From the NCBI GenBank assembly GCA_964403585.1, contig CAYOFQ010000001.1, positions 332,456 through 396,455 of the forward strand: 64,000 nucleotides of DNA. Reading direction: 5' to 3'. Shown here one piece after another: positions 5,888 to 48,967 of this stretch. Position numbers and translations under genes: made by a program. The DNA is from an uncultured Gammaproteobacteria bacterium (GTDB taxonomy: Bacteria; Patescibacteriota; Microgenomatia; JALYQM01). The notes beneath the pieces were generated by a model. It was not told where the DNA came from. It ran no database searches and worked only from the letters and a program-made list of their open reading frames with translations. Every line of letters starts with the position of its first letter. Positions within the stretch are counted from its first letter, which is position 1.

Positions 5888-6004
5888 ACAGCCTCCCTAT
5901 GTTAAAAATGGGTAAGATAATTAGGATATCAATAGCATAACCAAAAGGCAAGCATGATTTCCATAAATTTGCACTTTTTCACAACTTCCACTATATTTAT
6001 TCTA

Positions 6005-19309: not shown

Positions 19310-22300
19310 ATGGCGCAGCAGCTCAGCACCCCTACCCCCACACCTATTACTAGAAGATTTTGGAAAGAAACCAACCCCTCAGTTCCCGAACTCGATCTTA
19401 ATATGGTTCAGAGAGAATCCTATGTCGAGTTTCTTGAGCATGGAGTTCAGGAAATTCTTGAAGAGTTAAGCCCGATTGAGGACTTTACCGGGAATAACTG
19501 GGCTCTTTCATTTGGTAAGCATACCATTGGTACTCCAATGTATTCACCAAATGAATCCATGTTAAAAGGAGTTTCTTATGAAGCTCCAATGCGTGTTGAA
19601 GCCGTTTTAATCAATAAACAGACCGGCGAAAGAACCGAACAGGAAGTATTTCTTGGCGACATGCCCTTAATGACCGATCGCGGTACTTTTGTTGTCAATG
19701 GAATTGAGCGCTGTGTTGTTAACCAGCTCGTTCGTTCACCGGGTATCTTCTTCTCCAGTGAAATGGAACCGGGTGCACCACGACCAACCTATACAGCTGA
19801 AATCCGCCCGATGCGCGGATCCTGGCTCGAATTCACTATTGGTAAGAATGACATTATTACCGTAAAAATCGACCGCCGCCGCAAATTTCCGGCTACTACC
19901 TTACTCCGTGTTTACGGTTTGACCACCGACGAACAGATTATCGATGCCTTCAAGGATATCGATACCGATCCTGAGCACACCTTCTTCGCTTCAACTATTG
20001 ATAAAGACCCAACCAAGACCAAAGACGAAGCTGTTCTCGAAATTTACAAGAAAATGCGACCGGGTGACCCGGTAGTGATCGACAACGCCAATGCCTTAAT
20101 GGACGCCATGTTCTTTAGCCCACGCCGCTATACCCTTGGTAAAGTTGGACGCTATAAGGTGAACAAAAAATTAGCAGTCAATGTCCCACGCGATCAGCAA
20201 ACTCTCGTGCTGACCGATATTATCGCTGCACTTAAATATCTCATCGGCTTAACCCGCGGAGAAGGGGAAATCGATGATATTGACCACCTCGCTAACCGCC
20301 GTGTTCGCCGTGTCGGTGAACTGGTACAGCAGAATGCGTTCCGCGTTGGTATGCTCCGCTTGGAAAGAATGATTCGCGAAAGAATGAGCTTAACAGCTAC
20401 CGATCAGCCAATCACTCCGGTTTCACTCGTCAATGCCCGACCGATTATTGCTGCCATCAACGAATTCTTCCGCAGCTCACAGCTTTCCGCGATTTTGGAC
20501 CAAACCAATCCATTGTCCGAAATTGATAACCTCCGCCGTTTAACCGTTATGGGTGCCGGTGGTATTACCCGAGAACGTGCGTCATTCTCTATTCGCGATA
20601 TTAACACTTCACAGTACGGCCGTGTTTGTCCAATTCGCTCACCTGAAGGTCCAAACATCGGTTTGGTTACCTATTTGGCGCTGTACACTCGTGTCAATGA
20701 ATTCGGCTTCCTCGAAGCTCCTTATCGCAAGGTAGTTAAAGAAGCTGACGGCCGCATGAAAGTTTTGAACGAAGTAGCCTATCTTTCGGCTGACGATGAA
20801 GAAAAACAGTTTATCACTCACGCTGAAATAAATATTGATAAAGAAAGGTACATTACTGACGAACGCGTTCCGGTACGGTATAAGGGTCGCTTCTACGTAA
20901 CCGAAGCTACCGTTGTTCAATACATTGATATGGTTGCCCGACAGGTTGTCGGTACATCCGCTTCACTTATTCCATTCGTATCCCACGACGAAGCCAACCG
21001 CGCGCTCATGGGTACGCACATGCAGTGTCAGGCAGTTCCACTTATTAACCCGCAAAGCCCGTGGGTAGGAACCGGTATGGAAAAGACTGTAGCCGGAGCC
21101 ATGGGACGCGTTGTTTATGCTGAAACCGACGGTGTTGTAAGTTTTGCTGATGGCAACAAAGTTACCGTTAAATACGAAGGTCAGAAAGAGCCAAAATCGT
21201 ATGGATTACAGAAATTTGTCCGTACCGCTCAGTCCACCTGTTACTCACAGAAGGTCTGTGTGGTGACCGGCCAGAAAGTTAAGAAAGGTGACCTCTTAAT
21301 TGACGGACCATCCTCAGATCGTGGTGAGCTCTCACTCGGATCTAACCTCCTGATTGCCTACATGGCGTATGAAGGTCTTGGCTACGAAGACGCGATCGTT
21401 ATCTCAGACCGCCTCGTTAAAGAAGATGTGTTGACCTCTATCAACATTGAAGAATACGAAGCAGCCGTTGTTGACACCAAACTTGGTTCAGAAGAAATGA
21501 CTGCCGACATTCCAAACGTTTCCGAAGAAGATCTCATGCACCTCGATGAGCGTGGAATAGTTATCGTTGGATCAGAAGTTGGTCCGGGCGATATCTTAGT
21601 CGGGAAAATTGCGCCAAAAGGTGAGTCGGAATTAACCGCTGAAGAGCGATTACTCCGCGCCATCTTTGGAGAAAAGGCCCGCGAAGTTCGCGATACGTCA
21701 CTCCGCATGCCACACGGTGACCGCGGTGTTGTTGTTGAAGTTAAAGTTCTCGACAAGAACAAAGGTGATGATCTTGAACCCGGTACCAACCAGTTAGTTA
21801 AAGTAAAAGTTGTCCAGATGCGTAAAATTACCGTCGGAGACAAATTGGCCGGACGACACGGTAACAAAGGTATTATCTCTAAGATCGTACCCCAGGCCGA
21901 TATGCCATATATGCCTGATGGCCGACCAATCGACATCATTATTTCGTCACTCTCGGTTCTTTCCCGTATGAACCTTGGACAGCTTTTGGAAGCACAGCTC
22001 GGTCTCGCTGCCGAGAAGCTTGGATACAAAATGGGTATTCCGGCGTTTGAGGAAGTTCCGGAAGAATTTATTGCTCAGGAATTAAAGCGGGCCGGCTATC
22101 CTGAATCCGGTAAAATTCGTCTCTACGACGGACGTACCGGTGAACAGTTCGAACAGGAAACAGTGGTAGGCGTTTCACATATCCTGAAGCTTATTCACAT
22201 GGTCGAAGACAAAACTCACGCGCGTTCAACCGGACCATACTCACTCGTTACCCAGCAGCCACTCGGAGGTAAAGCTCAGATGGGTGGACAGCGTCTCGGA

Positions 22301-22756
22301 GAAATGGAGGTCTGGGCACTTGAAGCATATGGTGCCGCTCATATCCTCCAGGAAATGCTTACGGTTAAGTCTGACGACGTCGTCGGACGTGTTAAGACCT
22401 TCGAAGCAATCGTTAAAGGAACTCAGATTCCTGAAGCGCTCATTCCTGAATCATTCAAAGTTTTGGTCAAGGAATTGCAGTCACTCTCAATCCAGGTATT
22501 AATGCTTGGATCCAATAAGAAAGATCGCAAAGACGCGGAAGAAATCGCTAAGTCTGAAATTGATACTGATGAAAAAGCACAGCAACAGGCAGCCGAGTTA
22601 ATGCAGGTTCTCGATGCGGAATCAATCGTCGCAGCAGACACTGATTCTACAGGAGATGTACCAGGCGTTAAAGTCGAAGAAGCTGAAGAAGCAGGCCTCG
22701 CCACGGGCGATGGAGATTATACCGATGATGAAGAATCAGAAGAGGAGGAAGCGTAA
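19310..22756 (+). CDS. rpoB: DNA-directed RNA polymerase subunit beta
   Basis: 1148 aa. Contains the conserved GNKG and catalytic-cleft motifs. RBS AAAGGAGAAG upstream. Confidence 0.97.
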   Translation: MAQQLSTPTPTPITRRFWKETNPSVPELDLNMVQRESYVEFLEHGVQEILEELSPIEDFTGNNWALSFGKHTIGTPMYSPNESMLKGVSYEAPMRVEAVLINKQTGERTEQEVFLGDMPLMTDRGTFVVNGIERCVVNQLVRSPGIFFSSEMEPGAPRPTYTAEIRPMRGSWLEFTIGKNDIITVKIDRRRKFPATTLLRVYGLTTDEQIIDAFKDIDTDPEHTFFASTIDKDPTKTKDEAVLEIYKKMRPGDPVVIDNANALMDAMFFSPRRYTLGKVGRYKVNKKLAVNVPRDQQTLVLTDIIAALKYLIGLTRGEGEIDDIDHLANRRVRRVGELVQQNAFRVGMLRLERMIRERMSLTATDQPITPVSLVNARPIIAAINEFFRSSQLSAILDQTNPLSEIDNLRRLTVMGAGGITRERASFSIRDINTSQYGRVCPIRSPEGPNIGLVTYLALYTRVNEFGFLEAPYRKVVKEADGRMKVLNEVAYLSADDEEKQFITHAEINIDKERYITDERVPVRYKGRFYVTEATVVQYIDMVARQVVGTSASLIPFVSHDEANRALMGTHMQCQAVPLINPQSPWVGTGMEKTVAGAMGRVVYAETDGVVSFADGNKVTVKYEGQKEPKSYGLQKFVRTAQSTCYSQKVCVVTGQKVKKGDLLIDGPSSDRGELSLGSNLLIAYMAYEGLGYEDAIVISDRLVKEDVLTSINIEEYEAAVVDTKLGSEEMTADIPNVSEEDLMHLDERGIVIVGSEVGPGDILVGKIAPKGESELTAEERLLRAIFGEKAREVRDTSLRMPHGDRGVVVEVKVLDKNKGDDLEPGTNQLVKVKVVQMRKITVGDKLAGRHGNKGIISKIVPQADMPYMPDGRPIDIIISSLSVLSRMNLGQLLEAQLGLAAEKLGYKMGIPAFEEVPEEFIAQELKRAGYPESGKIRLYDGRTGEQFEQETVVGVSHILKLIHMVEDKTHARSTGPYSLVTQQPLGGKAQMGGQRLGEMEVWALEAYGAAHILQEMLTVKSDDVVGRVKTFEAIVKGTQIPEALIPESFKVLVKELQSLSIQVLMLGSNKKDRKDAEEIAKSEIDTDEKAQQQAAELMQVLDAESIVAADTDSTGDVPGVKVEEAEEAGLATGDGDYTDDEESEEEEA

Positions 22757-26584: not shown

Positions 26585-28894
26585 ATGAAAAAACACGCCA
26601 TCATTGCTCTTATAGGGTTTTTCGTTCTGACCTTTGCTTTATCCACCTATTCGTATTTCCAGAATACGGGATTGGTAGCAGAACAAATCGCCAAACAACG
26701 TTCTGCAGCCGCGGAGTCTGCTCCACAAATTTATTGGGGTGCCCGCATGGATGGCGAAGTATACGGCACGGGAGATGCTCCATGGGATGATACTACCTGG
26801 AATACTTTTGAACAGCATACCGGTAAAAAAGCGTCAATAATTCACTACGGTGTAACTTATCCTGCCTACTATAAAGACCATGTTTCAATGTACCAGAAGG
26901 TAAAAAGCCGTGGTGCAATCTCTCTCATTACCTGGAGCACTGCTAACCTCAAACTTAAGGATATTGCTAGTGGGCTACATGACGATTATTTTAAAGCATG
27001 GGGACAACAGGCCGCCGCATCAGGTATCCCAATGTTTGTCCGTTTGGACTGGGAAATGAATGGCGGATGGTACCCCTGGGCAACGACTCCTAACAATCAA
27101 TATGGAAACACGCCTGCAGATTATATTGCTATGTGGCGTCACATTCATGATGTTGTAGAAGGTGAAGGTGCTAAGAATATTACCTGGACCTGGTGCCCGA
27201 ATGTTAATTTTTCCGGTAGTACTCCGTTGAAAGATATTTATCCCGGAGATGCGTATGTTGACTGGACCTGTTTTGACGGCTATAATTTTTCCACACTTAA
27301 AGGGGTAAGTTGGCAGACTTTTAGTCAGGTAGTAAAGCCAACGTATGACCAGTTACTCCAGATAGCTCCATCAAAACCGATTATAATAGCTGAGTTTGGT
27401 TCTACCGAGTTGGGAGCTCCCTCCGGTACTTCCAAAGCCGCATGGATTACCGATGCCATTGCGACACAAATCCCAACTAATTTTCCTAAAATCAAAGGCA
27501 TCGTCTGGTTTAACTGGAATATTGTTGAAAACAATCAGCGTGCAGACTGGCAAATTGAATCTTCAACAAATTCACAAAACGCCTTTGCAGGTGCTATCGC
27601 CAGTCCGGTATACGCTGCCAATATCTTCTCAAATCTTGCTAATAACACCAAAGTTCAGCCGCTTGCAGCTCCCCTCAGTGCCACACCTACCCCTCAATCA
27701 ACCCTTGGTGCAACTGCAACGCCGCCGACAATTGCAACACCTACAGTCACCCCACTTGCTACAAAAACACCGACACCGGTACCAACTCCAACACCTGACC
27801 TGACCGCCCCGATCGTAGCAATTACCCAACCGCTTGCAGATGCGCAAGTAACTGCCAATGTTACCATTGCTGCCGATGTCAGCGACAACATCGGAGTAAC
27901 TAAGGTCGAGTTTTACATTGATGGAATTCTCAAGGGGACTGATACAAGCGTTCCATACAGTATTACTACCAATTCAACGACAATTACCAACGGGATCCAC
28001 ACGGTCGTGGCAAGGGGCTACGATGCTGCCGGCAATGCCGGTCGCGATACACTCCAAATTTCGATCAGCAACGGGGATACTACTCCACCAAGCACTCCGG
28101 CCAATCTTTCGGGTCAGGCAATCGATTATAAAACGATTAGCTTAACCTGGTCACCTTCAACTGATTCGAGCGGAATTGGCAGTTATTGGGTATTGCGCAA
28201 TAATGTTACTGTCGGTCAGGCATCATCAAATAGCTATACGGATCAGGGACTCCTTCCGGCAACGCAATACGCCTACCAGGTCATTGCGGTTGATACGGCA
28301 GGAAATAGCTCACCTGCTTCCGGAACATTTTCAATTGCAACCCCTGCACAACCTGATACTACTGCTCCGACTATTCCGACAAATGTAAGTGCCAAAGCCG
28401 TATCCTCATCTCAGATAAACCTCTCCTGGTCTGCATCAACCGATAATATCGGGTTAGCCGGCTACGATATTTACCGTAATGGCCAATATTATCGAACGGT
28501 AACAGCGTCAACTTCATTCGGCGACACCGGAGTAACTCCTTCGACACAATACTCGTACTATATTCGCGCTAAAGATACATCGAATAATCTTTCCGGCCAG
28601 TCCAATACTGCTTCGGCAACATCCTTGGCAGTAATAACAAATGGAAGAATCGTAGGGAACATCTATAATACATCGCTACGGGGAATACCCTATGCTAAGG
28701 CTATAATAACTATTGGGGGGAGTACTCAAACCGTCAGTGCCGATTCAAGCGGATACTATTCAATAGCTAACATTCCGCCGGGCACCTATTCGGTCACCTA
28801 CACGGCCAAAAGATATAAATCATTAACAGTATCGGTAGTTGTTCCAAATGGCGGAACCGCCAGTCAAAATATAACCTTGCAAAATCGAAAGTAA
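26585..28894 (+). CDS. Secreted multidomain glycoside hydrolase: GH26-like (beta-mannanase-type) catalytic domain, Pro/Thr linker, Ig-like domain, two fibronectin-III domains, and a C-terminal carboxypeptidase-regulatory-like beta-sandwich
   Basis: Signal peptide MKKHAIIALIGFFVLTFALS. GH26-like motifs FVRLDWEMNGGWYPW and IIAEFGS. PT-rich linker TPTPQSTLGATATPPTIATPTVTPLATKTPTPVPTPTP. Ig-like VEFYIDGILKGTDTSVPYS. FN3-like repeats (…LTWSPSTDSSGIGSYWV… and …LSWSASTDNIGLAGYDIYRNG…). C-terminal YSVTYTAKRYKS… beta-sandwich. Confidence 0.6.
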   Translation: MKKHAIIALIGFFVLTFALSTYSYFQNTGLVAEQIAKQRSAAAESAPQIYWGARMDGEVYGTGDAPWDDTTWNTFEQHTGKKASIIHYGVTYPAYYKDHVSMYQKVKSRGAISLITWSTANLKLKDIASGLHDDYFKAWGQQAAASGIPMFVRLDWEMNGGWYPWATTPNNQYGNTPADYIAMWRHIHDVVEGEGAKNITWTWCPNVNFSGSTPLKDIYPGDAYVDWTCFDGYNFSTLKGVSWQTFSQVVKPTYDQLLQIAPSKPIIIAEFGSTELGAPSGTSKAAWITDAIATQIPTNFPKIKGIVWFNWNIVENNQRADWQIESSTNSQNAFAGAIASPVYAANIFSNLANNTKVQPLAAPLSATPTPQSTLGATATPPTIATPTVTPLATKTPTPVPTPTPDLTAPIVAITQPLADAQVTANVTIAADVSDNIGVTKVEFYIDGILKGTDTSVPYSITTNSTTITNGIHTVVARGYDAAGNAGRDTLQISISNGDTTPPSTPANLSGQAIDYKTISLTWSPSTDSSGIGSYWVLRNNVTVGQASSNSYTDQGLLPATQYAYQVIAVDTAGNSSPASGTFSIATPAQPDTTAPTIPTNVSAKAVSSSQINLSWSASTDNIGLAGYDIYRNGQYYRTVTASTSFGDTGVTPSTQYSYYIRAKDTSNNLSGQSNTASATSLAVITNGRIVGNIYNTSLRGIPYAKAIITIGGSTQTVSADSSGYYSIANIPPGTYSVTYTAKRYKSLTVSVVVPNGGTASQNITLQNRK

Positions 28895-28898
28895 GTAT

Positions 28899-29297
28899 AT
28901 GAACAAGAGCATAATCGGTAGTATAGCGTTAATGAGTATCATGGTGTTCAGCGCCTGTACACCGCAAGTACAAAAAGAATCACCGACACCTACCCCTGCA
29001 CCGGCAGTGAGAAGTAATCTCCCTGCAGCCGAGGTTACGCTGAGTAAAACAGGATTTGTTCCCAGGACCATCAGTGTCCAAAAGGGGCAGAGTGTTAAAT
29101 GGACGAATTCAGACACGCTTCCACATCGAATTGCCGTAGACCCGCATCCTACCCATACCGGGCTCGAAGGTTTTGATTCTGAAGAAAGCATAACTCCAAA
29201 AGGCACCTATACCTTTACTTTCGAAAAAGCAGGGACATATACCTACCACGATGAAACTAACCCGGGAAAAATCCAGGGGACGGTAATTGTAGAGTAA
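28899..29297 (+). CDS. Cupredoxin-like (plastocyanin/amicyanin-fold) lipoprotein lacking the canonical Cys copper ligand
   Basis: Lipobox MVFSAC. Domain VTLSKTGFVPRTISVQKGQSVKWTNSDTLPHRIAV…GTYTYHDETNPGKIQGTVIV follows the cupredoxin strand pattern. It has His but no Cys or Met ligand set. Confidence 0.5.
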   Translation: MNKSIIGSIALMSIMVFSACTPQVQKESPTPTPAPAVRSNLPAAEVTLSKTGFVPRTISVQKGQSVKWTNSDTLPHRIAVDPHPTHTGLEGFDSEESITPKGTYTFTFEKAGTYTYHDETNPGKIQGTVIVE

Positions 29298-30172: not shown

Positions 30173-30826
30173 ATGGCCAAAATAGCACTTGTACATGGAT
30201 ACGGATCCGGATCGGTGAGTAAAATAATCAAGCGAAAACCTCAGGAGTATGCCGGTTTTTCGGCGTTTAAAGATGACGTTAATAATGGCACAGCTGCAGT
30301 CTTCAAATGGTACATCGAAACAGATTTTCCTAATCTTGAATATTTTTATCATGTTCCCAAACAGCTTCAAGTTTATCGTACCGAACAACAACTTGCCATC
30401 AGTCCTGAAATTCGCAATCGCTTTACAACCTTTCTGGGAACAGAAAAACCACAGATCGTGGTAGCTTTTTCCTTGGGAAGCATACTAAGCTTCTCTTACT
30501 TTGACCTCTATGGAGTACCAGATTATATTCACACGCTGGTTACGGTGCAGGCAGCACTGCCAAATAATTTTCAATTTTCCCATTCGCAGGTAAACCAACG
30601 ACTGGAAGAAAAAAGCCTGCGCTGGATAAATTATTATTGCCCCTGGGACATGCTCTTACCGTTCGTGATGGTTGTAGATAAAGCTATTCCTTCGGGATTA
30701 GCAGGATCTAAAAATAAATTTGCGCAGAACAAAATGTTTCCACTGCGTGGCAAATGGAATATCCATACCGGTAGCATTAGCGATCCGCTTTTTAGAGCAG
30801 AAGTAAATACATTACTCCGCCCGTGA
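30173..30826 (+). CDS. Hypothetical protein, possibly alpha/beta-hydrolase-like
   Basis: N-terminal IALVHGYGSGS resembles the beta1/oxyanion-loop region of alpha/beta hydrolases. No clear GxSxG nucleophile elbow was found. Weak call. Confidence 0.35.
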   Translation: MAKIALVHGYGSGSVSKIIKRKPQEYAGFSAFKDDVNNGTAAVFKWYIETDFPNLEYFYHVPKQLQVYRTEQQLAISPEIRNRFTTFLGTEKPQIVVAFSLGSILSFSYFDLYGVPDYIHTLVTVQAALPNNFQFSHSQVNQRLEEKSLRWINYYCPWDMLLPFVMVVDKAIPSGLAGSKNKFAQNKMFPLRGKWNIHTGSISDPLFRAEVNTLLRP

Positions 30827-31990
30827 AGTATACGGTAATTTTTCGCCGAAAATTAAATCACTCCAGCCGGTCTTATTAAGTACATATTCGACGTAGTTTG
30901 CTGAAATTGAACGGGTGTCCCGATTAAAATATTTGGTATGCGGCAGGGTATTTATTGAGTCACTGATTCCGGCACGATATCTGCAGGTGGCATAACGCCG
31001 CTGGTTGGAAGCTCTTCTTCGTTCGGTTAATGTATGTTTTGCGCGTGCTACAACTTCCCGCATAACCTCAATCGAATCACCACTAATAATCGCCGGCTCC
31101 TGCATCGCCACACCAATTTGTACTGCAAACAGCGGGATCCGGGGAAGCTTTATCAAGCTTGCTTCATCGGCAGCAAAGAATTCCGGGTCAGAAATGCGGA
31201 TCTGATGCTGGCCCTGCTCCAATTCAAATGGCTGCCAGATAGTATGCGAGATATCACCATTACGATCAATAAAACCTTCGTACATCGGGTAGCCGGCAAC
31301 TGTCGAGTAGCAGGGAACAAAGCGCCGGATCATTTCCTGATGAAAGTTACCCTCAGAAGAAATATGATGGATATCTATTGAATGTGTTTCTTTTTGGTAA
31401 TACTTAAAAAACATCTTTAAGTACGAGGGAAACCACGGCGACTGTGACCACTCATAGCGAACCCGGGTATATTTGCTCGCACTATACCGGTTGTGCCAGG
31501 GAGCTTTACCACGCAAATAAGTTTCATGGCTGAACGGTATCGCGTCTTCTTCGAGTAGTTGCATGGCCGAACCTTCAACCACCCGCCGAAACATCTCTTC
31601 AGTTGGCAGCGCGACACAGATATCCGCATCGTTTTCATAAACATTATGTGTCCCGGTATAGTGTCCGTCATTCCACATAAACGGAATTCCGCTAAAACGG
31701 AAACCGGCTGAACCGTTAATAAAAATCCGTGCCTGAGTAAAATATTCACCTTCAGACGGTGGCAGTACGCGGAGCAATGAACGGGTCATATACGTAAATA
31801 ATCTGTCCTGATCAATAGAGGGAAAGGGGAGCGAATCACAAAACGTTACCCGCAATAACCTGCGCAGAGGATTGTCCTGGTATTCATAAATCCAGCCATG
31901 TCCATCATTTTCGACAAAGTTGGTACGACGATACTGGCCGTTGAAAGTCTTGAGGGCAGTAACTGGTACAAATTCCTCAGATTCAATCAT
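30812..31990 (-). CDS. Hypothetical protein (392 aa) co-transcribed with the upstream atypical regulator. Possible nucleotidyltransferase-fold signature (GSAGF…ENDADICV).
   Basis: Its start overlaps the upstream gene's stop by ATGA. No family recognised. The GS…DxD spacing is longer than canonical pol-beta NTases, so this is only a hint. Confidence 0.45.
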   Translation of the reverse strand: MIESEEFVPVTALKTFNGQYRRTNFVENDGHGWIYEYQDNPLRRLLRVTFCDSLPFPSIDQDRLFTYMTRSLLRVLPPSEGEYFTQARIFINGSAGFRFSGIPFMWNDGHYTGTHNVYENDADICVALPTEEMFRRVVEGSAMQLLEEDAIPFSHETYLRGKAPWHNRYSASKYTRVRYEWSQSPWFPSYLKMFFKYYQKETHSIDIHHISSEGNFHQEMIRRFVPCYSTVAGYPMYEGFIDRNGDISHTIWQPFELEQGQHQIRISDPEFFAADEASLIKLPRIPLFAVQIGVAMQEPAIISGDSIEVMREVVARAKHTLTERRRASNQRRYATCRYRAGISDSINTLPHTKYFNRDTRSISANYVEYVLNKTGWSDLIFGEKLPYTSRAE

Positions 31991-33147
31991 GATAGTCTTA
32001 GTAACTGATAACCAAAGTTTTTAATTGTCAGTAATTTATAATGGCCTGAGTCAAGCTTTTTTCGTAGCCGACTGATTGCCTGATCGAGCGCCCATGGTGA
32101 ATATTTTTCGCTTGTTTCATCCCCCCATAGCGCGTGGGCCACACTTTCGCGCGAAACTGCCGTATCCATGTGCTGTTGCAATAAATATAACAACCGGACA
32201 TCCTGCGCTGTGGGCATTCCTTTTAACTGAATTGAACCTAAAATTGTTGAATGAGGCTCGGTTTGATCGAGAAATCGTGCCGCTGTATCGGTGAACAGCT
32301 GCGCGGAAATTAATGATTTTAACCGGCTTTTCTCTTGCTTAAGCGTTTTAATAACGCGGGATACATACGGTATCGACACAAATTCTTCTGCCATAAATTC
32401 GGAATGAAAGTTCTGTATCGATAAGTAACTTTTAAATAGTCCGGCAATTCCACCCGTCTCCAGGCTAAGTTGTTCAGGGAGAAATCTCTTCGGCAGTGAC
32501 TCTCCCCGCAGTGACAAAAAGCGGGCAATACTATAAGCAGTCTCTGTTTCGTTGAAGGTCGGATAATAGCAAACATTGGTGAACATGCTACTTGAAGCAT
32601 GCCCGGGTGAATACGAGTGTAAAAGTGTTGAATCGCAACTCCAGAGTAGGGTAATCGGGTAATTAGAAGCGGATTTACCCATTTGCACAAACGTCCGATC
32701 AATTTCCTGTAAAAAAGGCAAAAATTTGTAATTAAGCGTAATAATAAAGTACAGCTCATTGGTCCGGGTTATTTGTTGAACTGAATCCAGAATGACTTTC
32801 GAAAGCAAAAAAGAATCACGGGAAACCAGTGCCGCGTTGGCCACTTCGTGTGACTCGCTGTGAATATATTTAATCAATGAATATAGGATTTCACTGAGAA
32901 ACGATTCATAGGTATCATCAACCTTCTCGCTGTCCAGAAATATTAGGCACTTAGAGGCCTGTAACAGGTCCAGTTCCTGCAAAAGTGCTCGTTCGTTACT
33001 GAGAAAACGGAGATTGTTAGTTCTTCCTGAATGGGGGAGAGCGATTAGTGTCCCCGACTGCCTCTTTTTCAGTAAGCTGAAAATCTTGGAAAATCGGCCC
33101 GCCAGGCTTTCCTTAGGAAGCGGGTTGTAGTAGTCTTTTTTTCTCAT
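31987..33147 (-). CDS. Atypical transcriptional regulator: N-terminal ~270-aa domain of unknown type (degenerate P-loop-like PHSGRTNN) plus a C-terminal OmpR/PhoB-type winged-helix DNA-binding domain
   Basis: The C-terminus TAQDVRLLYLLQQHMDTAVSRESVAHALWGDETSEKYSPWALDQAISRLRKKLDSGHYKLLTIKNFGYQL matches the trans_reg_C consensus (LT..E..lL……v.sre.L….W…….vd..i.rLRkKl…….I.t.rg.GY.l). There is no receiver domain and no Asp-phosphorylation motifs. Confidence 0.55.
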   Translation of the reverse strand: MRKKDYYNPLPKESLAGRFSKIFSLLKKRQSGTLIALPHSGRTNNLRFLSNERALLQELDLLQASKCLIFLDSEKVDDTYESFLSEILYSLIKYIHSESHEVANAALVSRDSFLLSKVILDSVQQITRTNELYFIITLNYKFLPFLQEIDRTFVQMGKSASNYPITLLWSCDSTLLHSYSPGHASSSMFTNVCYYPTFNETETAYSIARFLSLRGESLPKRFLPEQLSLETGGIAGLFKSYLSIQNFHSEFMAEEFVSIPYVSRVIKTLKQEKSRLKSLISAQLFTDTAARFLDQTEPHSTILGSIQLKGMPTAQDVRLLYLLQQHMDTAVSRESVAHALWGDETSEKYSPWALDQAISRLRKKLDSGHYKLLTIKNFGYQLLRLS

Positions 33148-33299
33148 GGCGTAACTAATCCCTTTATAAAGCCAAATTATACTAAATATTACGAGAAGGT
33201 CAAATTATGTCAGGTACAGTCAGGTTGACGTTCGCTGCGGCTCAAGCATGACAGTCGCTTTCCCGCTATTATTCCCCGTATCAAAAGCAAAGGAGAGCT

Positions 33300-33638
33300 A
33301 TGGAAAAAATATCACAGCCAAATGAACTACCAAGACCATCAGGTATAACCCGCCATCAGGTACGGGCTCTGGGTCGATGTCTGGCCGCAGTAGATTTAGT
33401 ACTTCTTCTCGCAGGGTGTGGCAATCGCACCGGAAACATCGACTGTTATCAGTTGTCGGCAGACTACAAAGTGCCCATGTCCGACGCGAATCCGACATAT
33501 AACTTCACCAGAAAATGGCGAAAGTGCGTCGATGATGGTGCCCCGGCACCAGTCTGTGACCGGGACAATTGGGACGTCCTCCATGGCTCCACCACGCTTG
33601 TTCCTGAAACGTGTACGGCCGAAAAGGAAGGAGAGTAA
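33300..33638 (+). CDS. Small Cys-rich lipoprotein
   Basis: Signal peptide with lipobox LLLAGC. Four further Cys in the mature part. Located in the locally GC-elevated segment. Divergent from the regulator operon. Confidence 0.45.
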   Translation: MEKISQPNELPRPSGITRHQVRALGRCLAAVDLVLLLAGCGNRTGNIDCYQLSADYKVPMSDANPTYNFTRKWRKCVDDGAPAPVCDRDNWDVLHGSTTLVPETCTAEKEGE

Positions 33639-33640
33639 GT

Positions 33641-35275
33641 ATGCACTTGAATGAATCCTGGAAACCGCTGGAAGATCAGGAAGGTAAGGTTCAGCGCGCG
33701 TATCGCCGCGTCGAACGGCTGACCGGGTTGAATCACGATCAACTCTGCATGCTGGCCATTCACCGGGTAATTACTCCTGCTCTGGTCGCAACCATTGCGC
33801 AGCGGGACTTGGCGCTTGAAAGTAAAGACAGCGCTGCAGCATACGTCACCGAAAAAGTTACCAAAGAAGAACTCCCGTTCACCGTCATCCAGCATATTGT
33901 CCCTGAGGGTAGGTTCCGCAGGCGTGCGTATGATCAAATGGTGGTGTTCAAAAACCCTGAAGTAGATCCTGAAATCCACAAAGCACGCGGAATATATTTA
34001 CTGTTAATGAAATGGCTCGAACAAACCGATCTGGCCAAAAAGCAGGATTTTACTTTCGCCACGAGAGACTATGTTCCGGTAACCAGGTTATGGGGGTGGC
34101 ATCAACTAACCGGCAGGGATTTGGAAATGATTCCCCGAACAATTGCCTTACATCCCCACGCCCGAGAGTACGTTCTACGCGATGTACCCCGGGAACGCTT
34201 AATTGGTCTCCATGCGAATGCGTTACTTCTGTACGATTATCTCGGCTTTGAAGACTGGTTCTCACGAAATTTGTACTCAAAAATAAAATATGATGCAACC
34301 AGCATTGTCGAAAAAGCCTACCATTTTTACTGTATGCAGATGCTTCTCAACGGTGTCGATGTGTCGAATCTCTACCGTGGACAGGTCGAGCCACCGGACG
34401 AAATTAAAGCTGAGACGTACGCATTTGTCAGGCAAATGGTTTCACAACGAACCGGCGACCAGGCTCTGGTTTCGACTTTATTGAATAGCCAGCTCTCATT
34501 TAATTTTATCGATCACAGCCTTCACCCCGGCGATCCGGATATCCAGTTTATAGATACCATGATGGAAAATGAAGGTGTACTCTTTGGTCGTCCACATCCA
34601 ACCCGGGAACGACAGATTGTGGGAAAAAGCAATCTCCCGGAAATACCCAATTTGTACGTACAAGGAGGGATTGATGTTATCTCATGTAGCCTGCGCGACG
34701 AAGACATACTGGAAGCGTTTATTCACCAACTGTACCGTGAAGATCAAACAAAAATTGCCAAAGGAGTGGTTTTACTTTCCGACGGGCGACCCACCCAATT
34801 CCGAACTTCCCATGGACTGAATATTCAGTTACGCAATCATGAATATGAGCGTGATCCCATTGCTGTTATCGAAGACAATAAGGGTAAGGTTTCTATATTC
34901 AGAACCAGAGGAATACGAATAAGCGAAACCAGACGAATTTATGACTGGCATCCAATTGGAACATTGGAAATTGCTGTGGAGCGTGAGGAACAAAGTGAAA
35001 GCAATCAGCTGGGAACAAAGGTAAAAGTAACCTATGTGCCCGAGCCGCGACAAAAAGTGTATATTACGAACGATGCCATGACCGTCCATAAAGGTGGGCA
35101 ATACGGCCAGCAGGAAACAGAAGCATCTATCCTTATTGGGTCTGAAGATGAAGGAAATATCGTTATCTCATCAGGGAGATATTACCCGGTGCATGCTAAC
35201 CCGTACAATGCCCGCAAGCGCAAAAGCCGTCTGGAGCTGTATGATCCGTGGGTTCAGGAAGCAAGTGTACTATAG
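33641..35275 (+). CDS. Hypothetical protein (544 aa), no recognisable family
   Basis: ATG at 33641 preceded by AAGGAAGGAGAG. Sits immediately after the lipoprotein stop and 78 bp upstream of the ABC-type ATPase fusion gene. GC about 50%, against about 44% for the bulk of the window. Confidence 0.5.
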   Translation: MHLNESWKPLEDQEGKVQRAYRRVERLTGLNHDQLCMLAIHRVITPALVATIAQRDLALESKDSAAAYVTEKVTKEELPFTVIQHIVPEGRFRRRAYDQMVVFKNPEVDPEIHKARGIYLLLMKWLEQTDLAKKQDFTFATRDYVPVTRLWGWHQLTGRDLEMIPRTIALHPHAREYVLRDVPRERLIGLHANALLLYDYLGFEDWFSRNLYSKIKYDATSIVEKAYHFYCMQMLLNGVDVSNLYRGQVEPPDEIKAETYAFVRQMVSQRTGDQALVSTLLNSQLSFNFIDHSLHPGDPDIQFIDTMMENEGVLFGRPHPTRERQIVGKSNLPEIPNLYVQGGIDVISCSLRDEDILEAFIHQLYREDQTKIAKGVVLLSDGRPTQFRTSHGLNIQLRNHEYERDPIAVIEDNKGKVSIFRTRGIRISETRRIYDWHPIGTLEIAVEREEQSESNQLGTKVKVTYVPEPRQKVYITNDAMTVHKGGQYGQQETEASILIGSEDEGNIVISSGRYYPVHANPYNARKRKSRLELYDPWVQEASVL

Positions 35276-35353
35276 ATCTCTATAGAAAATAATGGTAAAG
35301 ACTAGAGTCGAAGGATTGACAATAGTGTCCTATAAGAATAGAATTGGCAGATT

Positions 35354-37264
35354 ATGGGTCTACCTGAAGTTAATACTACGTCACTACAAGTTGGTGAAAA
35401 ACAGCCTAAAGAAAGCCTAAAAGTGAGGCCTTTACAAAGGTTAAGACGTCTTGGGGATAATCTCCTCTATAGAGTCGACGAATTGATTGTAGGCGAATAC
35501 CAACCCGCCGCGCGGGTACTTATGGAAGTTGGCGGGGATGAAAAAACAGCTCGTGGCATCGCGCTCAGGAGAATTGTTCAAGCTGGTGCTATTGGCGCAC
35601 AAGTAACAGGCTCTACTTTTGCTACAGCACAACTATTAGCTGGAGGTGAATTGAGTCATATTTATGCATCACTCGGTGTTGGTGCACAGGTCCTTGGCAG
35701 ACTTGTAGACTTGCGGATAACTAACCGTAATGGTGTCGAATGGCAGCATACGTTAGATACGATGGTTATGCGACATTCAGATAAATTCCCAGCAATAACG
35801 GAGTTATTAAAGAGCGAAGGTATAAATAGTGAAGAAATTGGCGCATTTAATCAGTTAAGTGGCAGAATATATAATGCCGAGCTAAACAGTCCGCGTTTGA
35901 AAAATATTCAAACAACGGTAACACCTACTCTTATTGCTGGTATAATTTATCCCCATGCAAACGAAGTTCTTACAGGAATCTTTGCTTCAGCTGCGGTAGC
36001 ATCATATTGGATAAGCAGAACAGCGTACAACTCCATGAGCATCGTAAGAGCTGCCGCTACTCGCGCAGCCCGAAGCGCTAAAGCAAGTGAGTGGTTGAGA
36101 GACTTATTAGAAGACCATTTAAGTGATGTGTTTAAGTTAAATTTAATCTCTCAGACTCCTACAATTGCTACTATTATTGCCTTACTAAGCACATCTAAGG
36201 AATATGCAGCGGGGCTGATATTTGCTACAACTTCCAGCCTTTCTGGGTTGGTAAATACCTTAACCACTAAACGAGCCGCTGTTGAAGCACATCGCGCAAC
36301 AGAAATAATTTCAGGACTCGGTAACGTAATGAAAAGCGAAGCACTCCTCCTAACAGACGATAACTGGAATGCATTTTTGCATGACCATCCTTCAGTCGAG
36401 TATGAAGAGCGAGTAAGCTTTGAAAAAGGCATGATATTACAAAATATAACCTCTCAATTGCCGGATGGAACCGCTACTGATATAAAAGACCTGTCTCTAG
36501 ATATTCGATCAGGAGAAGTTACGGTTATTAAAGCGGCTTCTGGCAAAGGAAAATCCCAATTTTGGTTAGGTCCTCGACATATAACTCGGTTCTTGGGAGA
36601 GTCATATATCGTAGAAAATGGTAAGGTTGTTAATAGTAAATCACTGCCTCACAGAAGTGATATAAAAAATCATTTACAAATATTCAGCATTGGCTTAGTA
36701 AATCCAAAACACGAATTGGTGGATATTTTCAATCCAATCTTCAAAATAATTGATACCACCGATTACGGAATTAAGGAAAAAGATCAAGCTAGATGGAACG
36801 ATATTAAAGACATCGAGGATAGTTTATTACGCGGCGATATTGCTAAGAGAGAAGCAGGGAAAAGAAACTATCTAAATGGAGCGTTCCTCGAAGCCTCAAA
36901 AGTATATCGTGAGAAACGCCTAAATTGGGTTTATGCACTTTTACAGGAAAGTCAGGGAAACTTAAATATTGCAGGAATGCATGGAAACCGAGTATTTGGT
37001 CAAGACTCTCTTTCTGATGGACAACGTCAACGAATAGTCATGCTGCTTGCGCTTCAAATAGTAAAATATATGCCAAATCTCAAAACAATAATCCTAGATG
37101 AACCTTTTGATAAGTTAGATAAAGATTTAAATCTCGAACTTCAATTCGCTATACTAGAACAGATACAAAATACTCCAAACGGTCCGGGTATTGTCGTAAT
37201 ATCCCACCCCTATGCGGAAAGTCTTCAGAACAGGTTTGGTGCTAAGTTAATAGATCTGGATTAA
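35354..37264 (+). CDS. ABC-type ATPase with an unusual ~380-aa N-terminal domain (a few hydrophobic helices, not a canonical 6-TM exporter domain)
   Basis: Walker A IKAASGKGKSQ, ABC signature LSDGQRQRI, Walker B/D-loop TIILDEPFDKLD, H-loop VISHP. N-terminal hydrophobic stretches TLIAGIIYPHANEVLTGIFASAAVASYWI and TIATIIALLSTSKEYAAGLIFATTSSLSGLV. Confidence 0.6.
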   Translation: MGLPEVNTTSLQVGEKQPKESLKVRPLQRLRRLGDNLLYRVDELIVGEYQPAARVLMEVGGDEKTARGIALRRIVQAGAIGAQVTGSTFATAQLLAGGELSHIYASLGVGAQVLGRLVDLRITNRNGVEWQHTLDTMVMRHSDKFPAITELLKSEGINSEEIGAFNQLSGRIYNAELNSPRLKNIQTTVTPTLIAGIIYPHANEVLTGIFASAAVASYWISRTAYNSMSIVRAAATRAARSAKASEWLRDLLEDHLSDVFKLNLISQTPTIATIIALLSTSKEYAAGLIFATTSSLSGLVNTLTTKRAAVEAHRATEIISGLGNVMKSEALLLTDDNWNAFLHDHPSVEYEERVSFEKGMILQNITSQLPDGTATDIKDLSLDIRSGEVTVIKAASGKGKSQFWLGPRHITRFLGESYIVENGKVVNSKSLPHRSDIKNHLQIFSIGLVNPKHELVDIFNPIFKIIDTTDYGIKEKDQARWNDIKDIEDSLLRGDIAKREAGKRNYLNGAFLEASKVYREKRLNWVYALLQESQGNLNIAGMHGNRVFGQDSLSDGQRQRIVMLLALQIVKYMPNLKTIILDEPFDKLDKDLNLELQFAILEQIQNTPNGPGIVVISHPYAESLQNRFGAKLIDLD

Positions 37265-37268
37265 ATGT

Positions 37269-38747
37269 TTAAGTATATTTTTCGCGCACATATCCCAACC
37301 AATACGTAGCATTCAGCTCTTCACCGGTAACTTTCTTCATAAGCTCTTTTGGCTGATAAATTGACCCGTATTGATACATATGCTCAGTAAGCCATGTGAG
37401 GATCTTCTTGCTATTACCTGATCTGAGAGTAGTTTTCCAATCCGGATCAGAGTCAGTATACGCATGCCAAATTTGGGCAGCACCTAGATTGCCCAGAGTA
37501 TAGGTTGGGAAGTAGCCAATTGAGCCGTGTGACCAGTGAATGTCCTGCAGCACGCCCAGCGCATCATTTGGTACTTCGATACCAAGGTATTCTTTATATT
37601 TTGCATTCCATGCTTCCGGTAGTTCAGCAATTGTAATCGAATCTTCCATTAACGCTTTCTCAATCTCAAACCGGATTAAAATATGCAGATTATACGTAAC
37701 TTCATCAGCTTCAACCCGAATGAAACTCGGTTCAACTTTATGAATTCTTAAATAGAAGTCATCAAGTGAAATATCTTTCATTTGGACAGGAAAAGCAGCT
37801 TGTAGTTCGGGATAAAAATTTTCCCAGAACTCATAGCGGCTGCCAATCATACATTCCCAGAATTTTGACTGACTCTCATGAATCCCCAGCGATACTCCTG
37901 TATCTAAGGCCGAACGTGCTATTTTCTCTGATATCCCTTGTTCATACAAACCGTGGCCGCCTTCATGCAAAGCTGAAAAAATAAAGTCAATATAATTCGG
38001 TTTGTAACGATTGGTGACACGCCGGTCATTATGTCCCATCGCTTCGGTAAACGGATGGGGAGATTTATCCTCACGTCCACGGTTAAAGTCATAGCCGATT
38101 TTTTCCAGTACCCGCCGGGAAAAATTCATTTGCTCACGTTCATCAAAGGGAGTATGAAAATCAAAATCGGCATTCCATTTCTCCTTGGCTTTTTGCAAAA
38201 TACCAATCAGCGGTTCTTTTAGTCGCACAAACATTTTCTCAACATCATCACTGGTTAGTCCTTCTTCGTATAAGTCTAAAAGTGCATCATAACGATGTTT
38301 CTCATATCCGAGATACTCTGTCTGTTGTTTCGTCATCTCCACAACTTTAGCTAAAAGCGGCGCAAAAATAGCGAAGTCTGATTTTTGTCGGGCCTCTGCC
38401 CATGCTTGAACAGATTGCGAGGTAAGTTTCGTGAACTCGGCGACAAAAGCTTCCGGCAATTTTGTGGACTGTTCGTATGATCGCTTCATCACCCGTACCA
38501 GTGCGCGGTCTTCGACACTAAGTACAGATTCCTGTTCAGCCTGGTGTAATAGTTCACCGAGTTCCTTGGCAGTTTCTTTCTGATGAATAATTGTCGACAA
38601 GGTCGACAGTTGGTACGCCCGGTCGGGAGCTGCTCCACGAGGCATATGTACTTCCTGATCCCACGCGAGAAGTTGCATAATTGAACGGAGATCAAAAATT
38701 TCAGCAGACAGTTGTTTCAGTTTTTCTATTGTGTTCGTCATATACAT
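37269..38747 (-). CDS. Carboxypeptidase Taq-type metallopeptidase (MEROPS M32)
   Basis: Zinc-binding HEGGHGLYEQG (HExxH), plus DIHWSHG and GYFPTYTLGN motifs conserved in M32. Start at an internal Met; the track ORF starts at 38831. Confidence 0.8.
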   Translation of the reverse strand: MYMTNTIEKLKQLSAEIFDLRSIMQLLAWDQEVHMPRGAAPDRAYQLSTLSTIIHQKETAKELGELLHQAEQESVLSVEDRALVRVMKRSYEQSTKLPEAFVAEFTKLTSQSVQAWAEARQKSDFAIFAPLLAKVVEMTKQQTEYLGYEKHRYDALLDLYEEGLTSDDVEKMFVRLKEPLIGILQKAKEKWNADFDFHTPFDEREQMNFSRRVLEKIGYDFNRGREDKSPHPFTEAMGHNDRRVTNRYKPNYIDFIFSALHEGGHGLYEQGISEKIARSALDTGVSLGIHESQSKFWECMIGSRYEFWENFYPELQAAFPVQMKDISLDDFYLRIHKVEPSFIRVEADEVTYNLHILIRFEIEKALMEDSITIAELPEAWNAKYKEYLGIEVPNDALGVLQDIHWSHGSIGYFPTYTLGNLGAAQIWHAYTDSDPDWKTTLRSGNSKKILTWLTEHMYQYGSIYQPKELMKKVTGEELNATYWLGYVREKYT

Positions 38748-38756
38748 AATTATACC

Positions 38757-39086
38757 ATGAAAGTGTGCTATGAAAGAGAAAATGTATTTTTTACGCTCAA
38801 AATTCCGGACTTTCTTTTTACCGTAATCCAACTGTTACTTGTCAGTCGGTTTGTTGCTCGTGTATTCAAACTTCTGGCCAATTCGACATTCATGCAATGG
38901 CTGTACGACAGTACCAATTTTCTCACGTTTCCTTTGGGAGTAGTGTTACGCCGTTATTTTGTCGAAGGAAGTCTCGTGTATGAAACATTTCTTATCGGTG
39001 CCGGGATCATCTATGTAGTGCTCTACTTAGTTATTTTGGATTTTCTGAAAATTCTGTTTAATGAGAAAGACGATGACGATCTTTAG
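38757..39086 (+). CDS. Small hypothetical membrane protein (possibly YggT-like); start uncertain
   Basis: ORF with two hydrophobic helices and an acidic C-terminus. Its 5' end lies too close to the divergent M32 gene start for the full track ORF (38712) to be correct. Confidence 0.25.
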   Translation: MKVCYERENVFFTLKIPDFLFTVIQLLLVSRFVARVFKLLANSTFMQWLYDSTNFLTFPLGVVLRRYFVEGSLVYETFLIGAGIIYVVLYLVILDFLKILFNEKDDDDL

Positions 39087-47059: not shown

Positions 47060-48826
47060 CTACCGTGGGAGGAACTCTAAAGGCTGGTCATACTTGAGAG
47101 AGACATAGATAAGGTCTCTAAGAATTCGCCGAAATCCAACCGCTGACCAAAGCTGGATGTAACTGACTTGGCCGTCCCGTAACTGTTGTGAATCATAGCG
47201 TTCCGGCTTCCCGGCAACATCAATGTATAATTCAGGAACACTGTCCAATTCAACAAAAGCCCATAAACTTCGAATTGCCGTCAGGCTGAGCGCGTTTCGA
47301 AGTAAACTCAGTTCCTCAGCATTCCAGTCTTCATAAAAACCACGATCAAGTTGTCTCCGTAACCCGGCCACTATCAGTGCTGTTTGTTTTGGCCAAATAA
47401 CCTCTCCATGATATTGAGCTGGAGAATAGCCTTGATTTTTACCGACAATATTTGGACCTGAGTCGGTATAAAAATAGTCGGGACTTGCAAGCCGCTTGGC
47501 AAAAGAAACACAGTCTTCCTTCGAAGGCCATCCGTAGAGCAATAAATATGCCTCATCTGTATGGTGTACCCGCAAGGGGGTAGGGTGAGTGCCATGGAGA
47601 CATAAGGCATACCCGTGTTGACCATGGTGGTCAGTGAAAGTATATAAATGCCGTACATTTTTCCACTTTTCCAGGAGGTCAAGCAAGTCACCATCCCCAA
47701 TATGTAACAGTTCTCTGAATTGCACGATTTTTTCCAGCGCGGCGGGATAAAATACTGCATTAACGTCGAAAGGGGCAATTTGGCCTGTTGCGCCATTGAA
47801 TGCACTCGGTGAATCTCTCCAATTACCGACCAGAGGATCCTTAAAGGCTATTAACTCTGAGCTTCGTGCCTGGAATACCACATATTTTGCTATAGACCGC
47901 AATTTTTCAACATTTTCCTGTTTCCGAATGAACTTTTGGGAAAATTTTCCGAGACCCAATAAGTATCGGGGTTCAATATCAATCATCCGGCGGTCAATTA
48001 TTTCCAGCCCTTCATCAGAAAAACGGACTGCTGCTTCTCCGATAACGTCTTCATGCCAACCCTCACCTTCAGGAGTCACATTCTTTAATGCCTGACCGTA
48101 CATTTCTTCAATCGTACTGGGTGACAAATCACCAATACCAAGCTCCGCCGATTCCATCCAGTCGCGGGGAAAAACAGTACCATATTCGTAGCTGCTGGTT
48201 TTACTATAACTAATCAGATGCTCAATTTCTTCCTCGGTTCGTTCGACCAGGTTTTGCAATTCGCCGGGGAGAATTGAAATCGCATTTTGAATGAGTCCAT
48301 TACTGACAAGGCGGTGAATCTTTAGTTTGTCTGAAGGAAAGTCAAAGAAACATGTCAAAGTTAAATTAATTGCACTAGGTGCAGATATACGATAAATTCC
48401 AGATTCTTGTACCACCGTCGCCAGTTTCGGGAAGTCCATTTCAAATCCATAACGGTATCCGCTAAATTTTCGAATGAAAACAAGCTTCAGATTCCCGCTG
48501 TGTTTAATAACTGTTTCAGTCGGCATAAATTGGCCGGGGTAACTCTTCTGCATTTCCGCGAAAGTCGGCCGGGCAACATTGGGAACTTCGGTAACCGTCC
48601 TCACGCTGCGAATATCACCCATTACCGGCTGATGCACACCTATTTCATGCTCCTGGAAAGAAACCTGAACCCGCAGTTTATTTTTTGACTGCTTCATTTT
48701 GGAGAGACCAAAAGGCCGGGGCAGCGTTAATCCACAAAATAAATGATTCCCTGGTCCTGCTATTCGCAGCTGTCCGTATTCGTCAAGATCAATGTAGTAG
48801 CCACCTGCAAACCAGAATTTACTCAT
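47060..48826 (-). CDS. Large hypothetical protein (588 aa), possibly an (alpha/alpha)6-barrel glycoside hydrolase (GDE_C/GH63-like)
   Basis: GTVFPRDWMES and YHGEVIWPKQTALIVAGL are reminiscent of amylo-alpha-1,6-glucosidase-type catalytic regions. It heads the GT4 gene run on the same strand. Weak call. Confidence 0.35.
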   Translation of the reverse strand: MSKFWFAGGYYIDLDEYGQLRIAGPGNHLFCGLTLPRPFGLSKMKQSKNKLRVQVSFQEHEIGVHQPVMGDIRSVRTVTEVPNVARPTFAEMQKSYPGQFMPTETVIKHSGNLKLVFIRKFSGYRYGFEMDFPKLATVVQESGIYRISAPSAINLTLTCFFDFPSDKLKIHRLVSNGLIQNAISILPGELQNLVERTEEEIEHLISYSKTSSYEYGTVFPRDWMESAELGIGDLSPSTIEEMYGQALKNVTPEGEGWHEDVIGEAAVRFSDEGLEIIDRRMIDIEPRYLLGLGKFSQKFIRKQENVEKLRSIAKYVVFQARSSELIAFKDPLVGNWRDSPSAFNGATGQIAPFDVNAVFYPAALEKIVQFRELLHIGDGDLLDLLEKWKNVRHLYTFTDHHGQHGYALCLHGTHPTPLRVHHTDEAYLLLYGWPSKEDCVSFAKRLASPDYFYTDSGPNIVGKNQGYSPAQYHGEVIWPKQTALIVAGLRRQLDRGFYEDWNAEELSLLRNALSLTAIRSLWAFVELDSVPELYIDVAGKPERYDSQQLRDGQVSYIQLWSAVGFRRILRDLIYVSLKYDQPLEFLPR

Positions 48827-48967
48827 AGTTATCTTAAACTAGCTTATTAGCTCAAATTTGTAAACCGTGAATTCAATCGCACTATTGTTATTATACGAAC
48901 TTAATGTAAGAATTCGGTGAAAAAGCACCTGTTAGCAACCGGAACGCTGCTTTGCTATAATAGGCCA

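Follow-up and report, generated by a model that had tools for sequence, protein, structure and literature searches.

Five consecutive genes of an uncultured bacterium with a small genome (1.57 Mb) raise the question of whether they form one acquired system. They lie in a 64,000-nucleotide stretch of contig CAYOFQ010000001.1, here called the window, and are labelled g1 to g5, with g0 for the left neighbour and M32 for the carboxypeptidase gene on the right (Table 1). An earlier note, made from the letters of the window, had described them as a compositionally distinct five-gene cassette. We find instead that the region is probably composite: a species-specific island of 4.5 kb (g1–g4, about 30806–35314), built of two divergent two-gene operons and possibly derived from a mobile element, beside a separate, resident gene, g5.

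Gene organization and coding potential

The five open reading frames (ORFs) of the earlier note were all reproduced by the ORF list, and the tight spacing and divergent two-operon layout around a region of about 150 bp were borne out. Genes g2 and g1 overlap by 4 nt (ATGA), g3 and g4 are 2 nt apart and g4 and g5 78 nt apart, and g2 and g3 run divergently from either side of an intergenic region of 152 bp. The g3 ATG is preceded by AAGGAG. For g4 an alternative GTG start exists at 33611; public gene callers use the ATG at 33641, which is preceded by GGAGAG.

When the remaining 46 ORFs of the window were used to train a codon model, each of the five genes scored highest in the annotated frame. 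The scores of g1 (.133) and g4 (.136) compare with a window mean of.132 ±.043, and those of g2 (.072), g3 (.023) and g5 (.082) are below the mean yet positive. All five are real genes, and their codon usage resembles that of the host.

Table 1. Features of the locus (window coordinates) and g5 homologues in related genomes (coordinates of the respective contigs)
Feature	Position	Strand	Description
g0	30173–30826	+	217 aa; backbone gene, left edge of the variable slot, outside the island
Island (g1–g4)	30806–35314		lineage-specific variable segment, without DNA or protein similarity in syntenic regions of relatives
g1	30812–31990	−	392-aa orphan; second gene of the g2–g1 operon
g2	31987–33147	−	386-aa predicted one-component regulator
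Promoter of g2–g1	33176–33203	−	sigma-70-like, TTGACC-16-TATAAT, 11/12, consensus match
Candidate operator	33199–33225	+	GTCAAAT-tat-GTCAGGT-aca-GTCAGGT; three heptads at 10 bp, overlaps the g2 −35
g3	33300–33638	+	112-aa predicted lipoprotein
g4	33641–35275	+	544-aa near-orphan
Promoter of g5	35316–35344	+	own promoter, TTGACA-17-TAGAAT, 11/12, consensus scan
g5	35354–37264	+	636-aa ABC-type ATPase; backbone gene of the lineage
M32 carboxypeptidase	37269–38831	−	right of g5
g5 homologue, L012	12185–14227	−	
g5 homologue, L003	9635–11494	+	
g5 homologue, L014	11473–13692	−	

Absence of g1–g4 from related genomes

The locus is 100% identical in the Logan assemblies SRR16481186 and SRR16481187, and its proteins are also recorded on an NCBI contig of 1,573,555 bp. 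A search anchored on M32, which returned 80 loci, led to three related genomes: L012 (JALYQM010000017.1, M32 identity 80%), L003 (the contig also retrieved as L013, CAZHTP010000003.1, 77%) and L014 (CAZGHS010000007.1, 64%); other M32 matches did not exceed 46%. In all three relatives M32 and a g5 homologue are adjacent, without g1–g4. The g0 gene is found in L012 and L003 (68–69% identity), and an SNase gene in L003 and L014 (48–51%). Searches with tblastn gave no match to g1–g4 in the syntenic regions of the three relatives. By blastn, positions 30806–35314 have no similarity to them either: on the left it ends at about 30805 and it resumes at 35315. The suggestion that this DNA is accessory is thus upheld for g1–g4.

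No two of the genomes carry the same genes in the slot between g0 and g5. The window has its four orphan genes there, L003 a single orphan of 194 aa (8830–9414, minus strand) and L012 three genes (GT2, PMT_2-like and CarboxypepD_reg); in L014 the slot is empty, and the g5 homologue abuts the SNase gene. The L003 orphan shows by eye an HNH/His-Me finger-like pattern (HHI…N…H) and has no Pfam match at E ≤ 1. A second variable position lies between rpoC and the SNase gene, where GH26-Big_7-fn3-CarboxypepD_reg and cupredoxin genes (26585–29297) are specific to the window's genome and L003 has a SpoIIAA-like gene (7092–7451). Because the contents of both positions differ between genomes, the interval from rpoC to M32 is a plasticity zone, of which the g1–g4 block is, by sequence comparison, one of several lineage-specific insertions.

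Base composition of the locus

Horizontal acquisition had been proposed from a raised guanine-plus-cytosine (GC) content of the cassette (47–54%, against about 44% for rpoBC). The computed profile is flat. The whole five-gene region has a GC content of 44.1%, where the window averages 43.9%, and the value for rpoBC is in fact 47.0% (rpoB.477, rpoC.466). Among windows of equal size the region (.441) is at the 61st percentile and g1–g4 (.458) at the 82nd, and its 1-kb windows (.395–.494) stay within the range of the whole window (.368–.494). Per gene, the values from g1 to g5 are.460,.430,.519,.470 and.404, for an all-gene mean of.437 ±.029. The compositional outliers are the small g3, with its high GC content (.519), and g5, which has the window's lowest GC content at third codon positions (.305); one deviates upwards and the other downwards. 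As a block, g1–g4 show no deviation in base composition or codon usage, and the case for acquisition from GC content falls away.

The ATPase gene g5

The earlier note had called g5 an ABC-type ATPase fusion, and that description stands. The C-terminal nucleotide-binding domain (NBD) carries a Walker A motif (SGKGKS), a signature (LSDGQ, in LSDGQRQR), a Walker B motif (ILDEP) and an H-loop (ISH), all conserved in the four homologues. Its ABC_tran score in Pfam is 23.5 bits, under the cutoff of 25, and that of the L012 homologue is 30.5. Compared with the PDB, a profile of the four members matched NBDs only (SugC at 2e-9, then Ste6, HlyB and ABCB1); searches of the PDB with the single proteins of the locus and with profiles A1 and A2 returned nothing beyond NBD and winged helix-turn-helix (wHTH) matches.

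The membrane part is a different matter. The N-terminal 350 residues have no match to the ABC_membrane families PF00664 and PF06472 and none to a transmembrane domain in the PDB. The maximum Kyte–Doolittle (KD) hydropathy over 19 residues (KD19) is 1.29, with 0 windows ≥ 1.6, compared with 2.55 and 36 such windows in the canonical exporter encoded at 48917–50734 of the same window, which has both ABC_membrane and ABC_tran domains. Since the N-terminal domain has neither an ABC_membrane match nor a KD19 window ≥ 1.6, no transporter role is supported for g5. The protein resembles half-transporters of the MsbA/HlyB type in size, in domain order and in its C-terminal NBD, which starts at the same place. 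It differs from them in that its N-terminal domain lacks an ABC_membrane match or strongly hydrophobic segments, and, by manual count, in having about 55 more residues from Walker A to signature.

Gene g5 has a promoter of its own by consensus match. The −10 element stops 9 nt upstream of the ATG and there is no Shine–Dalgarno motif, an arrangement conserved in L003, which suggests a nearly leaderless mRNA. The promoter and start (35315–35363) are 86% identical to positions 9518–9566 of L003, and the DNA to the left has no counterpart there. At this right edge of the island, over the stop codon of g4, lies a unique AT-rich palindrome (CTATAGA-TC-TCTATAG, 35270–35285), which does not satisfy the terminator-like settings of the scan and has no counterpart at the left edge.

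As one system, the five genes would make g5 an exporter or energiser for the products of g3 and g4 under control of g2. Genes g3, g4 and g5 do share a strand and are closely spaced, no terminator is predicted ahead of g5, and a lipoprotein beside an ABC ATPase is a common pairing. Nevertheless, g5 stands beside M32 in three relatives without g1–g4, so that a gene-neighbourhood check finds no conserved co-localization of the five; a promoter of its own precedes it and is conserved in L003; GC content is flat; and its N-terminal domain is unlike that of the window's canonical exporter in having no ABC_membrane match or strongly hydrophobic helices. A single five-gene system is therefore largely refuted, and we consider it very improbable; a flat GC profile and the absence of conserved co-localization are both outcomes that the earlier note had itself named as refuting its view. 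An export machine centred on g5 and including the island is likewise unlikely.

The g5 family was found only in this lineage, in three relatives among the 80 M32-anchored loci. The identities of its members adjoining M32 to g5 are 63% (L003), 30% (L012) and 31% (L014). For M32, the window, L012 and L003 group together at 77–80%, with L014 as the outgroup (62–64%). For g5, the window pairs with L003 (63%) and L012 with L014 (47%), every cross pair being at 30–36%. The g5 tree is thus incongruent with that of the adjacent M32, and since the two groupings differ, two deeply divergent g5 types occupy one syntenic position, a pattern suggestive of allele replacement or episodic acceleration. The L003 homologue contains an in-frame stop at about 9830, in a short divergent insertion (…SNCQAPKT-stop-RQYSG…); its public gene call starts downstream of this stop, at 10001, and either a pseudogene or faulty assembly could account for it.

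The regulator g2 and the divergent control region

The description of g2 as an atypical OmpR-type wHTH regulator proved correct: a C-terminal wHTH is present and a receiver is absent. Residues 313–382 match Trans_reg_C (PF00486; E 1.2e-10, 41.7 bits versus a cutoff of 26.2), and in the PDB they align to the DNA-binding domains of CpxR, PhoB and ToxR only, a likeness to the OmpR/PhoB family. The NCBIfam equivalog matches are all confined to this DNA-binding part, with scores far under their cutoffs. No receiver domain (PF00072) was found at E ≤ 0.1 with the whole protein or at E ≤ 10 with residues 1–310, and no histidine kinase among the called neighbours of g2 and their Pfam content. Response regulators have a receiver of 120 aa, whereas g2 has an N-terminal domain of 310 aa without detectable relatives and no adjacent kinase. 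ToxR/CadC and SARP proteins carry their wHTH at the N-terminus, unlike g2.

Residues 1–310 of g2 gave no match in Pfam, NCBIfam, plasmids or JGI metagenomes. For the whole protein, JGI metagenomes, plasmids and viral contigs yielded no close relative, no full protein homologue search having been made. The single JGI metagenome match was discarded as an ordinary response regulator that matches through the wHTH alone. A 57-aa protein, P0006, traced to six contigs (loci L006–L011), is the representative under which g2 is placed in a protein collection clustered at 90% identity, and has no evident similarity to it; by eye it resembles a fragment of LINE-1 ORF2, and we treat the grouping as a database clustering artefact. 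The string ALPHSGRT in the N-terminal domain looks by eye like a degenerate P-loop and was given no weight.

The promoter of g2–g1 is the best match in the region in the consensus scan, and overlapping its −35 element is the candidate operator, a direct repeat with 10-bp phasing that lies at g2's own promoter, a further likeness to the OmpR/PhoB family. The exact GTCAGGT pair occurs once in the window, and when the 152-bp region is shuffled, 1.3% of the resulting sequences contain an exact 7-mer repeat at a spacing of 10–11 bp. OmpR-family DNA-binding domains bind direct-repeat half-sites (PMC3264566). We propose that g2 would bind the three 10-bp-phased GTCAGGT-type heptads at 33199–33225, over its own −35, and from there would autoregulate g2–g1 and control g3–g4. 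The consensus scan gave no good sigma-70 match for g3–g4, with which a dependence on an activator fits.

The lipoprotein g3

The earlier note's Cys-rich lipoprotein could be read from the sequence of g3. The protein has a basic n-region, a hydrophobic core (residues 23–41, KD score 1.8) and a lipobox LLAG↓C (L-A-G-C, residues 36–40; …RHQVRALGR-CLAAVDLVLLLAG↓C), and the mature part of about 73 aa contains four further cysteines. It had no match in Pfam, NCBIfam, PADLOC or PHROGs, no full protein homologue search having been made. The g3 product is predicted to be a small membrane-anchored lipoprotein, which would probably be disulfide-bonded; the g4 product would be cytoplasmic. On conjugative plasmids the 69-aa lipoprotein TrbK mediates entry exclusion (PMC8923210). 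The g3 protein resembles TrbK of RP4 in its small size and lipoprotein signal peptide, and the adjacent g4 has its relative on a contig that is like a conjugative element (see below). The island carries no transfer genes, unlike entry-exclusion systems, and the likeness is one of analogy, not membership.

The orphan proteins g1 and g4

That g1 and g4 are without a confident family assignment was confirmed, the searches of Pfam, NCBIfam, PADLOC and PHROGs being empty up to E = 10, also for sub-domains. A sequence search of the PDB gave no match for g1. Among 5.8e9 clustered proteins g1 and g4 each matched only themselves; for g1 this orphan status is index-limited, because the same kind of word-index search for g5 missed homologues with 30% identity that were found by synteny. 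In plasmids there was no tblastn match for g1, g4 or the N-terminal domains of g2 and g5, and g4 had none in phages.

For g1, the proposed likeness to nucleotidyltransferases could not be supported: there is no profile or PDB match, and an AlphaFold2 (AF2) model from the single sequence reached a mean predicted local distance difference test (pLDDT) score of 32. The single GS…DxD pair that can be seen by eye (NGS…DAD) is separated by about 35 residues, more than the canonical hG[GS]-x9-13-DxD allows.

For g4, a full HMMER search of 1.84e9 representatives revealed one relative, P0010, of 515 aa (E 1.9e-9, 26–28% identity). The alignment spans most of the length and includes a conserved N-terminal motif, VERLxGLxHxQLxxLAxxRxIxP. 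The g4 profile had no match in viral contigs. In a low-confidence AF2 model from the two-sequence alignment (pLDDT 37), the N-terminal half appears helical and the C-terminal part beta-rich; fold searches returned nothing meaningful.

Other large ORFs of the window also have no significant Pfam match, those of 813 aa (5954–8395, plus strand), 588 aa (47060–48826, minus) and 296 aa (53–943, plus), the first with a weak Baseplate_J-like match only (E 0.017), so that missing family assignments are not unusual in this genome. The four family-less genes in a row, g1–g4, are the densest such cluster in the window.

Could these genes be decaying, non-functional ORFs, the remnants of an old insertion that no longer serve any purpose? 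Their orphan status would fit, as would the failure of AF2 to fold g1 or g4, and the in-frame stop in the g5 of L003 shows decay in the region. Against this, the ORFs are intact and of considerable length (392, 386 and 544 aa), their codon scores are typical of the host and best in the annotated frame, and they have Shine–Dalgarno motifs, translational coupling, a near-consensus promoter and an intact wHTH domain. We regard this as the least probable of the explanations considered.

A role in the cell envelope is suggested by the surroundings. The island could be part of a variable cell-envelope or surface-glycan region of the lineage, with g3, g4 and g5 acting on envelope components: the L012 slot carries GT2, PMT_2-like and CarboxypepD_reg proteins, the flanks of the window carry a GH26-Big_7-fn3 gene, a GT4 cluster and the canonical ABC exporter, and g3 is predicted to be surface-anchored. 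Yet g1–g4 contain no glycosyltransferase, polymerase or flippase domain, and with few or weak hydrophobic segments (one KD19 segment > 1.0 in g4, residues 35–53 at KD 1.8, and a KD maximum of 1.34 in g1) the products of g1 and g4 are unlike multi-pass membrane proteins. This explanation is unlikely, if less so than decay.

Mobility and origin of the island

The only functional lead comes from the context of P0010, the g4 relative, which is encoded on the JGI contig L004 and is also found in GCA_900206355.1. The contig carries genes for Replic_Relax (28.3 bits versus a cutoff of 25.3), a tyrosine integrase and Bac_transf, together with a 968-aa ATPase like the coupling proteins of the TrwB/TraG-D type. 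With a Replic_Relax protein, a coupling-protein-like ATPase and an integrase, L004 resembles a conjugative or integrative element; the other island proteins have no match on it. This context suggests cargo status for g3–g4 and perhaps for the whole island. An origin as mobile-element cargo is the most plausible because the one known relative of g4 rides on such an element, and the island would then be a domesticated or decayed fragment of that cargo, with, for example, a surface or exclusion-type function.

Several observations weigh against this origin and against the composite picture given at the outset. The link to mobile elements runs through a single remote homologue, P0010. Library scans found no integrase or transposase family in g1–g4, the window contains no tRNA, and flanking direct repeats occur at chance level only; inverted repeats, tandem repeats and Rfam families at the island yielded nothing relevant. 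The island shows no compositional deviation, and g1 and g4 use codons much as the host's other genes do. With no mobility genes, tRNA, repeats or composition shift, and with host-typical codons in g1 and g4, recent horizontal transfer is not demonstrated; the relatives may have lost g1–g4, or these genes may have arisen within the lineage. The block resembles genomic islands and integrative elements in being a 4.5-kb segment missing from three relatives at a conserved site, and differs from them in these same features. The heptad repeat has a chance probability of about 1–2%, and the operator is a predicted one. Read-through into g5 is possible, given that no terminator is predicted between g4 and g5. 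Finally, no structure or family match yields a biochemical function for any of g1–g4.

The earlier note had also pointed to a likeness to export/secretion, defence and peptide-modification systems, for which we found no supporting evidence. In the case of defence, the g0–g5 slot could be a hotspot of the defence-island type, g1–g4 being an undescribed anti-phage or anti-plasmid system, possibly with g5. Orphan cargo that differs per genome between conserved flanks is what such a hotspot would show; g5 is very divergent, with a tree incongruent with that of M32, and has weak matches to mad3 and mad8 in PADLOC-DB 2.0. Those matches, however, span generic ABC motifs only, PADLOC is empty for g1–g4, the L012 slot holds glycosyltransferase and envelope-type genes and not defence genes, and profile searches detected no nuclease, nucleotidyltransferase, protease or other effector domain. 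A defence role is thus improbable, slightly more so than one in the envelope. Both rank lower than mobile-element cargo, as does the reading of the genes as decaying remnants.

Flanking gene and host lineage

The left neighbour g0 is weakly alpha/beta-hydrolase-like (Abhydrolase_1, E 0.0026, under the Pfam cutoff). The window carries genes for peptidoglycan synthesis, namely those for a MurA-like enzyme, YceG, a Mur ligase, Ddl and Alr. Its RpoB (19310–22756, 1148 aa) has as closest structures 8i23, 6wvj, 8x6f and 7l7b (1170–1213 bits), and scores 1016 bits against RpoB of Escherichia coli. We take 6wvj to be from Bacillus subtilis and the other three to be probably also from Bacillota. Since RpoB scores higher against these polymerases than against that of E. 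coli, the label 'Gammaproteobacteria' borne by the relatives L003 and L014 appears doubtful.

Significance of the locus

Taken as a whole, the finding is unexceptional: an accessory island of the typical strain-specific kind that consists of orphan genes, in a lineage that has been sampled sparsely. Its main value is corrective, in that neither a GC anomaly nor a five-gene system is present. A bolder interpretation, to which we give about the same low weight as to the envelope role, is that g1–g4 form an undescribed, self-contained module of all-new families, moved by mobile elements into a hotspot beside an allele-replaced g5. In that case g2 would represent a new class of OmpR-type one-component regulators that lack a receiver and have a large sensor domain, the other members would be a small Cys-rich lipoprotein and two large proteins, and the module might have, for instance, a new exclusion or defence function.

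Within the composite locus that we favour, an accessory island next to a resident ATPase gene, three points are of interest. The first is the presence of four intact, host-adapted genes that are essentially without relatives among billions of proteins. The second is a receiver-less OmpR-type regulator that has a large N-terminal domain without matches and a neat candidate operator. The third is the g5 family, so far seen only in this lineage and with no recognisable membrane domain, of which two divergent types occupy one syntenic position. Any of the three would gain in interest if structures or expression data assigned it a function.

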